From Escherichia coli (GTDB lineage: Bacteria; Pseudomonadota; Gammaproteobacteria; Enterobacterales; Enterobacteriaceae), in assembly GCF_003019035.1 (NCBI RefSeq), contig NZ_CP027447.1: DNA of 64,000 bases. One strand, given 5' to 3'. The translations under genes were made by a program, and so were the position numbers. Under the pieces are notes generated by a model that saw only the letters and a list, made by a program, of their open reading frames with translations, was not told where the DNA came from and ran no database searches. This document shows, one piece after another, positions 22,304-26,204 of the stretch; position 1 is the stretch's first letter; each line of letters begins with the position of its first letter.

Positions 22304-22874
22304 GGTGCTACAACTCCCGCCACCGCTTGAGGGTGATATCAGTCTCAGAACGCTGGGAAGACTGGCCGGACGGCTGGATAACATCGACCTGAGCGTACTG
22401 ATGGTCGGTCTCGTCGATATTGTCGACAGTTCCGCGCTGCCATGGCTTGGCGAGCAGTTCTCGCTGTTCGGCGATGGCTGGGAACTGGCGGAATCGGACG
22501 ATGTACGCCGCATGCTTATCAAATCCGCTATCGAGCTACACCGCTATAAAGGAACACCGTGGTCAATCCGGGAAATTATCCGCCGTTTTGGCTTCGGCGA
22601 AGTGGATCTGATTGAAGGTACGGGGCAGATTGGCTATGACGGCAGACACACGTACAACGGGCTTTTCGTCCATGGTGATGCACAAGCCTGGGCAGTCTAT
22701 CGCGTCATCTTTCAACAACCCATCACTAACGATCAGGCGGCGCTGTTACGTCAGACGCTTGCTGCCTTTGCTCCGGCTCGCTGTCATCTGGCAAGTCTGG
22801 AATATCAGTCTGTCGCCATTCGATACAACAGTACTACCTGTTATGACGGTAGTTACAACCACGGGAGCAGTTAA
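22296..22874 (+). CDS. tail protein I-like (P2 gpI / Mu gp48-like), 192 aa
   Basis: Family resemblance and order. Confidence 0.7.
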   Translation: MAKVLQLPPPLEGDISLRTLGRLAGRLDNIDLSVLMVGLVDIVDSSALPWLGEQFSLFGDGWELAESDDVRRMLIKSAIELHRYKGTPWSIREIIRRFGFGEVDLIEGTGQIGYDGRHTYNGLFVHGDAQAWAVYRVIFQQPITNDQAALLRQTLAAFAPARCHLASLEYQSVAIRYNSTTCYDGSYNHGSS

Positions 22875-22876
22875 TT

Positions 22877-23845
22877 ATGGCAAATCTACCCGAAACCCCG
22901 CAGTGGGAAAGCGGCATCTACCAGATTGAGGTCTCTGACCCCGTTCTGGGCGGACCTGACGGAATTTCTAACCGCCAGGCTAAACAACTGGCCAGCCGAA
23001 CGTCATACCTCAAACAGAAGGTCGAAAAAAGCGGAACAGACCTGGCTGCACATATCGCGGCAGTTGACCCGCATACCCAGTACGCGACGAAAGCCAGTCC
23101 GACATTCACCGGCACACCAACAGCACCTACACCTGCAAATGGTGATAACAGCAAAAAGCTGGCGACGACGGAGTTTGTGGCCAAAGCACTTGCGGCACTT
23201 GCAGGCAGCGCCCCTGAGACACTGGATACGCTTAAAGAGCTGGCTGACGCTCTCGGTAATGATCCAAACTTTGCGACTACGGTACTGAACAAGCTGGCGG
23301 AAAAGCTGGCTAAAGACCAGAACGGCGCAGATATTCCTGAGCCTGCGCTGTTTGTCAAAAACCTTGGTTTGGGGGAAGGCTCTGCACTGCCCGTTGGTGT
23401 GCCCGTTCCGTGGCCCTTAGCAACACCACCAACGGGCTGGCTGAAATGTAACGGTGCAGCATTTTCTTCTGAAATGTACCCCAAACTGGCAAAAGCCTAC
23501 CCCGCGAATAAATTACCGGATTTACGCGGAGAATTTATCCGTGGCTGGGATGATGGGCGAGGAATTGATGCGGCACGCGCTTTATTGAGCATTCAAAACG
23601 GGATGTTGGAAAAACACCGCCATATTGTTGTAGCTAACGATGGATATGACACAAAAGATGAATGGGAGTTGGCTACGATTTTCAAAAAAACATATACACA
23701 AGGCAGGGGGCTTGATGCCACAAATACAGGAGGGAGTTTGACTCCATCACCAACGCTTCATTCACGAGGAAGTATTGGTAACACAGGTGGTAGTGAAACC
23801 CGCCCCCGCAATATTGCATTTAACTATATCGTGAGGGCGGCTTAG
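22877..23845 (+). CDS. tail fibre protein: constant N-terminal part fused to the variable C-terminal part currently in the + orientation
   Basis: Tail-fibre-like N-terminus; C-terminal ~155 aa lie inside the invertible segment. Confidence 0.75.
   Translation: MANLPETPQWESGIYQIEVSDPVLGGPDGISNRQAKQLASRTSYLKQKVEKSGTDLAAHIAAVDPHTQYATKASPTFTGTPTAPTPANGDNSKKLATTEFVAKALAALAGSAPETLDTLKELADALGNDPNFATTVLNKLAEKLAKDQNGADIPEPALFVKNLGLGEGSALPVGVPVPWPLATPPTGWLKCNGAAFSSEMYPKLAKAYPANKLPDLRGEFIRGWDDGRGIDAARALLSIQNGMLEKHRHIVVANDGYDTKDEWELATIFKKTYTQGRGLDATNTGGSLTPSPTLHSRGSIGNTGGSETRPRNIAFNYIVRAA
23361..23386 (+). other. gix/hix-like recombination site, left (TTGTCAAAAACCTTGGTTTGGGGGAA)
   Basis: Matches the AAACC-NN-GGTTT core of Gin/Hin sites; sits at the outer edge of the long inverted repeat. 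Confidence 0.55.
23371..23569 (+). repeat. inverted repeat, left copy (~200 bp, high identity to reverse complement of 24772..24978)
   Basis: Direct comparison of the two stretches; both encode GEGSALPVGVPVPWP...GRGID. Confidence 0.8.
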
Positions 23846-23851
23846 TTATAT

Positions 23852-24469
23852 TCAACTGGCTGCTGCCAGAGGCATTTCCGGCCAGTTGATATCCGGTGCA
23901 GTGCTGATGTCAGTCGCATTAAGCACATCTATGAAATCAAGCACGGCGTTTAGTTTTTCCGTCTCCTGGGGCGTCAATCGGCGTCCGGCTCGTAGTTTGA
24001 GATTTATAAGCTCAACAGATGCCATTGCCTGTTCCTCAAGTTGCTGACGATGCACTCCGGCAGCTTCCAGTTCTGCTGCGTGCTGTCGTCCCGCATCTGT
24101 CACCCAGGTCTCACCATCCCAGACATCATAGATAGTAGCTGGCTGTTTCACCGTCGTATCAGGAGGGTAATCTCCCGGTTGTGTGATTTGCACAGCGTTA
24201 CCATTCTCTGTGCTGTAAACCGTTTCGCCTCTGTGGTCTGGAACATATTTCCAGATGTTCTGGTCGGTATCACGACAGACAGCGAAGCCGGGGCGTTTTT
24301 CTGGTGGCGCGTCAATGCATGAGTGAGCCGGAATTCCAACACCATAAGCGAGATACTCAACAGTGGCAGAGAGATATTCACGGTTTTCAGCATCGTAGTT
24401 ATAAACGGTAATATCGCCTGCAGTTATAGCGATACCATTCTGATCAAGTACTGCAGCAGCATTATTCAT
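23852..24469 (-). CDS. tail fibre assembly protein (Tfa/U-like), 205 aa
   Basis: Tfa-like sequence; start overlaps stop of the inverted alternative fibre segment. Confidence 0.7.
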   Translation of the reverse strand: MNNAAAVLDQNGIAITAGDITVYNYDAENREYLSATVEYLAYGVGIPAHSCIDAPPEKRPGFAVCRDTDQNIWKYVPDHRGETVYSTENGNAVQITQPGDYPPDTTVKQPATIYDVWDGETWVTDAGRQHAAELEAAGVHRQQLEEQAMASVELINLKLRAGRRLTPQETEKLNAVLDFIDVLNATDISTAPDINWPEMPLAAAS

Positions 24470-24972
24470 TAAGTAGCCCTTACAATATAGTTAAACGCAA
24501 TATTACGGGGGCGGTTTTCCGTTCCTGTATTCCCTCCGTTGGCACCTAATCTATAAACACCACGAGTGCCAATAGCACGTAGTGAAGATGGAACTTTTAC
24601 ACCTGACTCATCTGTTTTAACAATCCCGCCATCACCGTATGTAGCCAGTATACCAGGGTTTGTTCCTGCACGGGTGCTATTTGCGGCAAGCCCTTCACCA
24701 GTCCATAACTCCATATAGTGAATATGATCTATAACCGAATGTGATTGTGCATTAAGCAAGGAACGCCCTGAATCAATTCCCCGCCCGTCATCCCAGCCGC
24801 GAATAAACTCACCCCGTAAATCCGGTAATTTATTCGCGGGGTAGGCTTTTGCCAGTTTGGGGTACATTTCAGAAGAAAATGCTGCACCGTTACATTTCAG
24901 CCACCCTGCTGGCGGTGTGGCTGAGGGCCACGGAACGGGCACACCAACGGGCAGTGCAGAGCCTTCCCCCAA
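24469..24972 (-). CDS. alternative tail fibre C-terminal segment (silent in this orientation; no own start expected)
   Basis: First 65 aa near-identical to internal part of the + strand fibre; different C-terminal ~100 aa ending in the same RPRNIAFNYIVRA motif. Confidence 0.65.
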   Translation of the reverse strand: MGEGSALPVGVPVPWPSATPPAGWLKCNGAAFSSEMYPKLAKAYPANKLPDLRGEFIRGWDDGRGIDSGRSLLNAQSHSVIDHIHYMELWTGEGLAANSTRAGTNPGILATYGDGGIVKTDESGVKVPSSLRAIGTRGVYRLGANGGNTGTENRPRNIAFNYIVRAT

Positions 24973-24978
24973 ACCAAC
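24772..24978 (-). repeat. inverted repeat, right copy
   Basis: Reverse complement matches 23371..23569. Confidence 0.8.
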
Positions 24979-24988
24979 GTTTTCGTCT
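24963..24988 (-). other. gix/hix-like recombination site, right (reads GACGAAAACGTTGGTTTGGGGGAA on the - strand)
   Basis: Same AAAC-NN-GGTTT core in inverted orientation. Confidence 0.5.
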
Positions 24989-25043
24989 TAACTCCCACCT
25001 ATACCAGCTATGTATTTTTAACAAAACAAAGAGGATATTTTTC

Positions 25044-25616
25044 ATGCAAATTGGCTACATTCGTGTGTCAACAAATGACCAGAATACAGATTTACAACGA
25101 AACGCACTGAACTGCGCAGGATGTGAACTGATTTTTGAGGATAAAATCAGCGGAACAAAGTCAGCCCGACCGGGATTGAAAAAGCTGCTCAGAACGTTAT
25201 CAGAAGGAGATACGCTCGTTGTCTGGAAGCTGGACAGGCTGGGCAGAAGCATGAAACACCTCATCACTCTTATTGAGGAACTGCGGGAAAAAGGGGTTAA
25301 CTTCCGTAGTCTTACAGACAGCATTGATACGTCAACACCCATGGGACGTTTCTTTTTTCACGTCATGGGGGCTTTAGCGGAAATGGAGCGTGAATTAATA
25401 GTTGAACGAACACTGGCCGGACTTGAAGCAGCACGTGCACAGGGGCGTATTGGTGGACGTCGTCCGAAACTGACAAAAGAGCAACATGAACAAATAGCAA
25501 GGCTGATCAAAAATGGCTATAGCAGGAAACAGTTGGCAATTATTTACGATATCGGTATATCGACGATTTATCGTTATCACCCTGTAGAGGAACTTCAAAC
25601 TCAAGCTGAGTTGTAA
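25044..25616 (+). CDS. Gin/Pin/Hin-family serine DNA invertase, 190 aa
   Basis: N-terminal MQIGYIRVSTNDQ catalytic-serine motif and near-identity of long blocks to Gin/Pin as I remember them; SD AAGAGGA. Confidence 0.85.
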   Translation: MQIGYIRVSTNDQNTDLQRNALNCAGCELIFEDKISGTKSARPGLKKLLRTLSEGDTLVVWKLDRLGRSMKHLITLIEELREKGVNFRSLTDSIDTSTPMGRFFFHVMGALAEMERELIVERTLAGLEAARAQGRIGGRRPKLTKEQHEQIARLIKNGYSRKQLAIIYDIGISTIYRYHPVEELQTQAEL

Positions 25617-25691
25617 TTCTTTTTCTGATATTGAAATGCCGCGGCGATGTAATTTATCTCACGGAAATAGGTACGTTTATCGCGCGGCGCA

Positions 25692-26204
25692 TCAATTCCT
25701 TTGTAAATCCAGCAAATCATCAATGCCAGTTTCACTTGCGGTATAAAAACTATCGGACTGAAAAACACACGGGCGACCTTGCTGATTAAAGGTCATCAGA
25801 ATCAAAAACGCGTTAGGTGCCAGACCATTTCCTGAAATACCCCGCCAGATAACCAGATCCTGAATGCCGTTACGATCAAGATCGGCACGGTAAAGTTGCG
25901 CATTACCCGCCATATTTTGCAGCACCCCCACAGGCACAGACCAGGATTTACCGGCGCGATCTTTACCGTTCAATTGCCATTCACTATCATCATTTGGCAT
26001 CTTTTCAAGCGTCACGCCAGCAACGCCGACTTTTCTAAAATGCCAGGTTTGCTCGGCATCATAAGGCATGGTCAGGAGAGGTTTCAGCGCCCGCTTTTGC
26101 GCGTATTCGCTGTCACTCATCGGCAGATATTCGGTAAAGCTGGTGGCCTGTGCAGGCAGCACTAAGCTCAATAAAAAAGCGCACATCCCTGTTCTGATGT
26201 TCAA
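25692..26204 (-). CDS. secreted hypothetical protein, 170 aa (signal peptide ...LSLVLPAQA), between invertase and hycI
   Basis: Signal-peptide-like N-terminus; TTG at 26204 or ATG at 26186 as start. No family recognised. Confidence 0.5.
   Translation of the reverse strand: MNIRTGMCAFLLSLVLPAQATSFTEYLPMSDSEYAQKRALKPLLTMPYDAEQTWHFRKVGVAGVTLEKMPNDDSEWQLNGKDRAGKSWSVPVGVLQNMAGNAQLYRADLDRNGIQDLVIWRGISGNGLAPNAFLILMTFNQQGRPCVFQSDSFYTASETGIDDLLDLQRN

Follow-up and report, generated by a model that had tools for sequence, protein, structure and literature searches.

In a Mu-like transposable E. coli prophage, the tail-fibre gene near the right end very probably has its 3′ end built into a host-range switch that works by site-specific inversion, as in the Gin/Hin/Cin/Pin/Min ('Din') systems. 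Its anatomy, the reading frame across the junctions, the homology of its parts, the natural isomers carried by relatives and the confinement of exchange to the crossover sites are all established. An invertible segment that swaps the end of the fibre gene had been proposed in a sequence-only reading of the same window (the whole 64-kb stretch of DNA analysed here), and anatomy, an in-frame in-silico flip and the isomers of relatives concur with that proposal. The features are collected in Table 1.

Table 1. Features of the invertible segment and its surroundings, in window coordinates
Feature	Coordinates	Strand	Remarks
Tail-fibre gene, constant 5′ part (aa 1–163)	22877..23364	+	outside the invertible segment; same in both in-silico isomers
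Left 26-bp crossover site, TTGTCAAAAACC-TT-GGTTTGGGGGAA	23352..23377	+	central TT at 23364/65
Outer inverted repeat, left arm	23358..23569	+	codes for the collar-domain start common to all tip cassettes
Tip cassette 1	23365..23845	+	joined to the constant part, currently expressed; fibre of 322 aa
Inner repeat, left arm	23795..23844	+	codes the conserved C-terminus ETRPRNIAFNYIVRA
tfa, 205 aa	23852..24469	-	co-oriented with tip 2, convergent with tip 1
Tip cassette 2	24469..24976	-	currently silent; phrog_523, tail collar fibre
Inner repeat, right arm	24470..24519	-	conserved C-terminus of tip 2
Outer inverted repeat, right arm	24772..24983	-	212 nt
Right 26-bp crossover site, AAGACGAAAACG-TT-GGTTTGGGGGAA on the - strand	24964..24989	-	central dinucleotide at 24976/77
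Serine DNA invertase, Gin/Pin/Cin/Min family, 190 aa	25044..25616	+	phrog_125
Candidate Fis-dependent enhancer, two G-N13-C 15-mers	25089..25151	+	predicted
Prophage right end	25617..25694	.	host DNA from 25695

Both crossover sites are present in inverted orientation, with an identical TT centre and GGTTTGGGGGAA as their inner half, and they agree with the consensus given in Table 3 of PMC4134206. The left site, with the same outer half, borders the constant part of the fibre gene in 8178, A31, JNEC-KY180, FEA3, DEF2 and DEF10, and the right site aligns with Mu gixR at an equal distance to the invertase start. The two occupy the outer ends of an inverted repeat (93% complementary) that is symmetric around both site centres and encodes ~68 residues common to both tips (fibre aa 164–231). 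Flanking gix-like sites, and repeats reaching ~200 bp into the segment, had both been recognized in the sequence-only reading, whose coordinates for the left site (23361–23386) need a shift of ~9 nt to the left. A single copy of the exact core AAACCNNGGTTT exists in the 64 kb, at 23359, and with up to two mismatches the core motif is found 33 times in the same 64 kb against 27 expected; it is not enriched, so that the motif by itself proves nothing, and it is the context that does. One near-match (24650–24661) was rejected as a further site, having an AG centre and no half-site context. The window contains only these two sites and no third, where Min-type regions have at least three.

The fibre ORF (22877–23845) belongs to the tail-fibre family phrog_3100 (E 1.5e-133) and carries a Collar domain (PF07484) at aa 174–221. 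In an alignment that takes in collar and C-terminus alike, tip 1 matches the T4 gp37 tip (2XGF, E 2e-16), and by sequence the two cassettes appear to encode miniature receptor-binding tips of the T4 gp37 type; none of the fibre, tip and Tfa proteins matched an NCBIfam family. Such a tip would run from a collar domain through a single HxH motif and a variable stretch of 90–100 aa to a return strand ending NIAFNYIVRA. A gp37-type tip fold explains both repeats of the segment, the outer one as crossover site plus collar start and the inner one as the C-terminal strand. Pairwise pN/pS of tip 1 is 0.05–0.15 (window copy against six relatives), values that point to strong purifying selection. A search of sequenced phages for tips like tip 1 gave one P1-like record rich in frameshifts and some distant matches, and nothing else.

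In the mechanism we propose, the invertase would pair the two 26-bp sites and exchange strands at their identical central TT, which would flip 23365–24976. The 163 constant codons, which in the present state run on into tip 1, would after the flip stand in frame with tip 2, and tfa would follow just downstream, translationally coupled. Flipping the segment in silico gives an open, in-frame fibre of 331 aa, whose TAA stop overlaps the ATG of tfa.

The serine invertase gene that had been noted just downstream is intact. Its product aligns with the Mu Gin structure 4M6F over residues 1–183 (306 bits), has Resolvase (PF00239) and HTH_7 (PF02796) domains, and retains the catalytic-serine motif YIRVSTNDQ; a mutated catalytic serine, which the earlier reading had named as evidence that would tell against a switch, is absent. 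Over its first 120 nt the gene is 77–80% identical to gin, and this stretch contains the two candidate enhancer 15-mers, the second (25137–25151) from a motif scan and the first (25089–25103) read by eye. From centre to centre the 15-mers are separated by 48 bp, and they occupy the same positions in Mu gin; the motifs are weak. Kahmann et al. reportedly located an enhancer within this part of gin in 1985, and inversion here may likewise depend on Fis and an enhancer. Beyond the invertase, homology to relatives with other insertion points ends at 25694–25697 and a 100% match to host sequence starts at 25695; these breakpoints replace an end at 25684 that had been suggested by resemblance to the right end of Mu.

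Both orders of the segment occur in nature. The order seen here, tfa(-)/tip2(-)/invertase, is found at full length in 4 records, and the flipped order, tfa(+)/tip1(-)/invertase, at full length in 9 genomes. Four members of one mouse E. coli lineage (8178, FEA3, DEF10 and DEF2) share both the prophage and its insertion point and represent four isomers, in which four 230-nt inner arms are permuted across four outer half-sites. The 212-nt repeats are, at 93% identity, long enough for RecA-mediated inversion, and homologous recombination between them could in principle drive the flipping in place of the invertase. Homologous exchange would be scattered along the 212 nt, however, whereas every 230-nt arm in the four isomers is unmosaic, exchange is limited to ~22 bp around the TT, with all of it falling between the outer half-site and +20, and the junctions that separate the window from the five-cassette array of strain A31 lie within +17. 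We consider the RecA route very improbable on these grounds, and site-specific exchange by the invertase is the reading we retain.

By analogy with these relatives, the switch is probably active in the source strain as well. The contrary case would be a decayed remnant, a two-cassette array left behind by deletions that no longer inverts and has its fibre frozen on tip 1 without a chaperone. Three cassettes, differing site-precisely, distinguish the window from the A31 array, no exact two-cassette array on the same phage exists among 5,426 complete E. coli genomes, and tfa lies antisense to the late operon, all as expected of such a remnant. The parts themselves nevertheless speak against decay: over the 570 nt compared, which leave out the stop codon, the invertase coding sequence is 100% identical to that of A31; the two sites are intact, agree in their central TT and have the half-sites that recombine in the 8178 lineage; and all three ORFs of the invertible segment are open. 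A two-cassette array with one tfa is, moreover, known from a P2-like prophage of D72, where it stands in the other state. A remnant is therefore improbable, and we favour a working switch.

The second, short inverted repeat that had been described as bracketing tfa, with an ending shared by both tips, is present too (50 nt, 86% complementary), and RPRNIAFNYIVRA closes both tips. Were this repeat also to recombine, tfa alone would flip and couple to tip 1, its ATG set right behind the tip 1 stop, and the locus would be a nested switch of four isomers, two of them productive; the repeat does bracket tfa exactly. The inner-flipped junction, built in silico and sought in 5,426 complete E. coli genomes, occurs in none of them; the 18 that carry the same core all have the native internal order, and the best match to the flipped construct spans the repeat and tfa only. 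The inner repeat has neither the GGTTTGGGGGAA half-site nor a TT centre, and GAAACC-CG-CCCCCG, read by eye, misfits the consensus. The tip C-terminus aligns to the C-terminus of T4 gp37 (NIAFNYIVR), where it is kept without any inversion system. The inversion at the inner repeats that the earlier reading had entertained thus finds no counterpart in these genomes, and a nested switch is highly unlikely; the inner repeat is a conserved C-terminal strand common to T4 gp37 and not a recombination site.

With only two sites in the window, selecting a tip also fixes the direction in which tfa points. The product of tfa is a Caudo_TAP protein (PF02413, E 3.7e-25; phrog_105), and its ATG overlaps the stop of silent tip 2 (TAATG), while 6 nt separate the stop codons of tfa and tip 1. 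That the segment has one assembly gene, coupled to the silent tip, is confirmed from the earlier reading, and the expressed tip 1 has no cognate copy in the window: tblastn found no second tfa homologue in the 64 kb, and the prophage reaches ~10 kb beyond the left edge of this stretch. Gp37-type tips usually have their chaperone gene directly downstream (PMC9659904). A sigma-70 consensus scan of 22700–25800 gave no - strand promoter for tfa (a weak negative) and detected no terminator that would separate the fibre gene from that of the invertase, and by eye the spacer from site to invertase has no convincing - strand promoter (again a weak negative). With no promoter-like - strand site for tfa, the supply of Tfa in the present state has no visible route.

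This arrangement recurs. Across eight loci and the window, wherever a cassette of the tip 1 class abuts tfa, every isomer that joins this cassette to the fibre gene has the array's one tfa running antisense to the late operon; the tfa-convergent tip is never co-transcribed with tfa from that operon, and yet it is under purifying selection. A single Tfa may serve all tips via their common C-terminus. For tip 1 it is quite possible that folding is independent of Tfa, or proceeds at reduced efficiency, and just as possible that Tfa arrives in trans or from an unrecognized promoter; it is unlikely that fusion to tip 1 is simply a non-productive state. More tentatively, and with some doubt, the switch might toggle the presence of Tfa along with the tip sequence, alternating a 'bare', chaperone-independent gp37-like tip with a Tfa-assisted or Tfa-capped one. 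If so, tip 1 would be a natural case of a fibre that needs no Tfa in a class that normally depends on a chaperone, and a tip that truly folds without Tfa would be useful for fibre and tailocin engineering, where chaperone matching is a nuisance. For the most part the locus is a tidy example of phage host-range switching, and its value is practical: the region is mishandled by assemblers and annotators because silent tip cassettes get called as separate 'phage tail protein' genes.

The Mu G segment also occupies a right-end position in a transposable phage and joins a constant part to a variable one. Its repeats are 34 bp with GA as the central dinucleotide, against 212 nt and TT in the window. 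The G segment is 3 kb and built as a mirror image, Sv-U / U'-S'v, with two tfa genes (the annotation shows U and U'), whereas the window has one; the short repeats and two assembly genes of the Mu architecture are thus not what the window contains. The S tips of Mu do not belong to the collar/gp37 type, and only a short match exists, in the constant part. The contrast with Mu repeats drawn in the sequence-only reading is real, but it is not unusual and marks Min/Pin-type cassettes already in the literature; repeats of ~200 bp and a single tfa are not novel and are family traits of Min/Pin-type collar-tip cassettes. Prophage Phi2 of EC958 has a 26-bp site, with TT centre and GGTTTGGGGGAA half-site, within an imperfect inverted repeat of 227 bp (Forde et al. 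2014, PMC4134206); collar domains are present in its tips, and both orientations occur in PacBio reads (PMC4134206). Unlike the window, Phi2 is described as mirror-symmetric, each side having its own cognate minor fibre (tfa) gene, in a segment of 2,067 bp (PMC4134206). T4 gp37 has, like the window tips, a collar domain, the HxH motif and a C-terminal NIAFNYIVR, and a Tfa-family chaperone gene adjoins the tip in the window as it does for gp37 with gp38 and for lambda Tfa. The needle is much shorter in the window than in gp37, and T4 has no inversion, its chaperone always being co-oriented with the tip.

The P2-like 'shufflon' of EPEC E2348/69 has the same core as the window (tip158, convergent tfa, tip, invertase). 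Across the ~51% of a 2,740-nt query that aligns to the module, identity is 91.7%, and the variable part of tip 1 is 98.5% identical. It differs in having three sites (NC_011601.1 1891695, 1892134 and 1893696), a P2-like carrier, a longer constant part (521-aa fibre) and another tfa-coupled tip (152 aa). Two inversions in E2348/69 were measured by sequencing and validated by PCR (Goldberg 2014 Table S1, PMC4272514), and the E2348/69 sites agree with them within ~7 bp.

In Min and in an IncY P1-like plasmid, as in the window, a cassette consists of a site, ~200 bp of collar-coding DNA, a variable part and a terminal ...RPRNIAFNYIVRAA. The Min multiple-inversion region of plasmid p15B is said to have been described by Sandmeier et al. 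in 1991 (NAR 19:5831). Sites of the Min/IncY P1-like kind (GGCATAAAAACG-TT-GGTTTGGGGGAA) are near-identical to those of the window, a lone tfa again follows one tip as its coupled partner and converges on a second, and the invertase gene has 90% nucleotide identity to that of the window, both being 573 nt. Min differs in scale and setting, with six sites, six tips and a P1-like fibre of ~800 aa, against two sites, two tips and a 322-aa fibre on a Mu-like transposable prophage. The passage on p15B-Min-type regions in PMC5786510 gives six tips and one tfa; the IncY P1-like plasmid has the same layout as p15B, again with six tips and one tfa, and the gene table of a p15B-min-like region (pMCR_SCKP-LL83) lists one tfaE among its tip ORFs. 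The hallmarks of a Min-type cassette (site plus ~200 bp of collar DNA, an ...NIAFNYIVRA end and a single embedded tfa) are all found in the window. Built on the same core, the arrays of relatives have 3 to 6 cassettes and in every case one tfa, and the array displayed at this locus is that minimal core of Min-type multiple-inversion arrays: a tip, a convergent tfa and a tip.

The tail-fibre gene in the window ends in a predicted invertible segment: its constant part (codons 1–163) lies 5' of the segment, and the 3' cassette, or tip, would be swapped. The two 26-bp crossover sites stand in inverted orientation at the outer ends of a 212-nt repeat. The bare core motif has no statistical distinction by itself; what counts is the symmetry of the two sites, the repeat they belong to and an invertase gene next door. 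A one-mismatch match to the core, ATACCAGGGTTT (24650–24661, within the silent tip 2), has the centre dinucleotide AG and flanks that misfit the half-sites, and is probably a chance occurrence. The invertase retains an intact catalytic-serine motif, and flipping 23365–24976 in silico yields an open 331-aa fibre (constant part plus tip 2) with the tail-fibre assembly gene tfa directly after it. This anatomy, the in-frame flip and the isomers found in relatives support the interpretation as an invertible tail-fibre segment made in an earlier sequence-only reading, whose left-site coordinates were about 9 nt off and whose observation otherwise stands.

Features of the tail-fibre inversion module, in window coordinates
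Feature	Position	Strand	Description
Tail-fibre gene	22877–23845	+	ORF
Left 26-bp crossover site	23352–23377	+	TTGTCAAAAACC-TT-GGTTTGGGGGAA
Outer inverted repeat	23358–23569 / 24772–24983		212 nt, 93%
Tip 1 (currently expressed)	between site centres	+	fused to constant part, giving a 322-aa fibre
HxH motifs	approx. 23618–23632 and 24722–24736
Inner inverted repeat	23795–23844 / 24470–24519		50 nt, bracketing tfa
tfa	between site centres	-	205 aa, Caudo_TAP
Tip 2 (silent)	between site centres	-	stop codon overlaps tfa start (TAATG)
Right 26-bp crossover site	24964–24989	-	AAGACGAAAACG-TT-GGTTTGGGGGAA on the - strand
Serine invertase gene	25044–25616	+	190 aa, 306 bits against the Mu Gin structure

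Window positions 1–25694 hold two thirds of a Mu-like transposable prophage, its right-hand part (left end outside the window). The head module is of Mu type, with portal, F-like protein, protease and major head protein, and the baseplate, with homologues of D, V, W, J and I, is of P2/Mu type. Relatives in other E. coli occupy differing, gene-disrupting sites near yehR, yccX, fepE and proY; homology to relatives inserted elsewhere ends at 25694–25697, and from 25695 onwards the host DNA matches the E. coli chromosome adjoining hycI at 100%. The prophage is inserted beside hycI, adjoining a 170-aa hypothetical gene (junction 25694/25695), and its right end lies 78 bp beyond the invertase gene. 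A 20-nt, 90% inverted repeat between the start of the tip 1 variable part (23560–23579) and the extreme prophage right end (25681–25700) is probably due to chance, though it overlaps the presumed transposase-binding end.

By alignment, the predicted tips are miniature forms of the receptor-binding tip of T4 gp37. Both the collar domain (Collar, PF07484) and the last residues (NIAFNYIVR) align to 2XGF, and each tip carries one HxH motif (KHRHI, DHIHY), which the alignment pairs with the gp37 needle's first HxH. In T4 these needle motifs coordinate iron, and the alignment suggests that the tips may form a metal-binding mini-needle. The gp37 chain reportedly goes out to the tip and comes back to the collar; such a fold would explain why the cassette ends are conserved and only the middle 90–100 residues vary. 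The 212-nt repeat therefore consists of the crossover site and the collar-coding sequence with which every cassette begins, and the 50-nt inner repeat is the C-terminal strand that they share. Within the conserved C-terminal ‘...VRA’ (23834–23845, 24469–24481), Arg is encoded by the rare codon AGG, which in tip 2 forms part of a Shine–Dalgarno sequence (AAGGG) 7 nt ahead of the tfa ATG; the same AGG is retained in tip 1, with no gene after it, and inter-cassette copies in relatives have AGA or AGG.

Flipping occurs in relatives, and by analogy would be expected in the window strain. The present order, tfa(-), tip2(-), invertase(+), is found at full length in 4 records, and the in-silico flipped order, tfa(+), tip1(-), invertase(+), in 9 genomes. 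Mouse E. coli isolates 8178, FEA3, DEF10 and DEF2 carry one prophage at one insertion point as four isomers, in which four unmosaic 230-nt inner arms are permuted over four outer half-sites. All exchanges in this lineage fall between the outer half-site and +20 despite 212 nt of homology on offer, which argues against general recombination and fits site-specific exchange at TT. The module of the EPEC E2348/69 P2-like prophage aligns with ~51% of the query at 91.7% identity (98.5% in the tip 1 variable part). Its crossover sites (NC_011601.1 1891695, 1892134 and 1893696) coincide, within a few bp, with the two inversions quantified by sequencing, with PCR validation, in Goldberg et al. (PMC4272514); the forward state made up 90 +/- 3% for the large inversion and 49 +/- 37% for the small. 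Inversion at the inner repeat, also raised in the sequence-only reading, finds no such counterpart: the tip1–tfa–tip2 core is in native internal order in 18 complete genomes, and a search of 5,426 complete E. coli genomes for the inner-flipped junction found it in none. We reject this repeat as a recombination site, as the site consensus is also absent from it (sequence read by eye).

Tip 1 and tfa converge on each other, their stop codons 6 nt apart and without an intervening site. Any isomer that expresses tip 1 therefore has tfa antisense to the late operon, a statement that covers the window and all eight fetched relatives in which a tip 1 homologue abuts tfa. For gp37-type tips the chaperone gene is normally directly downstream (PMC9659904). 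No second tfa lies within the window, and no promoter-like site for tfa was found on its own strand. Pairwise pN/pS for tip 1 (window copy against six relatives, from Mu-like, P2-like and P1-like carriers) is 0.05–0.15, indicative of strong purifying selection. Tip 1 may fold without Tfa or at lower efficiency; Tfa may come from an unrecognised promoter, or in trans from another prophage; or the present orientation may be poorly productive and tolerated by the phage. All tips share the same 13–14 C-terminal residues, and the N-domain of Mu Tfa reportedly binds the fibre C-terminus, which suggests that one Tfa could serve all tips. The question of Tfa supply for the convergent tip concerns the whole family typified by Min, the multiple-inversion region of plasmid p15B, and not this locus specifically.

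The closest array is that of strain A31, identical in tip 1, tip 2 and invertase coding sequence (100%) and near-identical in tfa (99.8%). At each window junction an outer flank of A31 meets A31's tip 1 or tip 2 arm with zero differences; the arms that A31 itself has at these positions differ at +17 and +20. Three cassettes therefore separate the two arrays, and the breakpoints lie within crossover sites. The window array (23352–23381, 24960–24989) equals the five-cassette A31 array (locus L003: 4488, 4960, 6573, 7499) minus three, both junctions lying <=17 nt from the crossover centre. This pattern suggests that cassettes may be lost or gained when site-specific recombination between directly oriented sites deletes or inserts them, events that Gin-family invertases normally disfavour. 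The genome annotation pipeline (loci L001, L003, L004, L005, L012 and L013) renders silent tips either as pseudogenes or as free-standing ‘phage tail protein’ genes, many of which begin at a TTG within the crossover site, and the status of one cassette varies among isomers of a single lineage. The Min-like region of the P1-like phage vB_EcoM-673R5 (ON470615.2, 3900–7900) is frameshift-rich, with the invertase split into ‘Hin2’ and ‘Hin1’ and truncated tips; sequencing error seems a likelier cause than biology, so the record is a poor comparator.

Long repeats and a single tfa, previously taken as unusual, are family traits. EC958 Phi2 likewise has a 26-bp site inside a long repeat (227 bp, imperfect, inverted) and collar-domain tips (PMC4134206). 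A single tfa is shared with an IncY P1-like plasmid (fibre, tip, tfa, four more tips, then invertase) and with a region 99% identical to p15B min, where one tfaE is listed among the tip ORFs (PMC5786510). Every array fetched from Mu-like and P2-like phages also has one tfa, with two cassettes in D72, three in E2348/69, four in 8178 and five in A31 and JNEC-KY180. Mu-like phages of the same kind can also have the classical mirror-image segment with two tfa genes, as in CFS3292, the EPEC Mu prophage and Mu itself. The window system is therefore the bare core of a Min/Pin-type module, not a module of Mu-G type. It is an ordinary representative of a kind already known.
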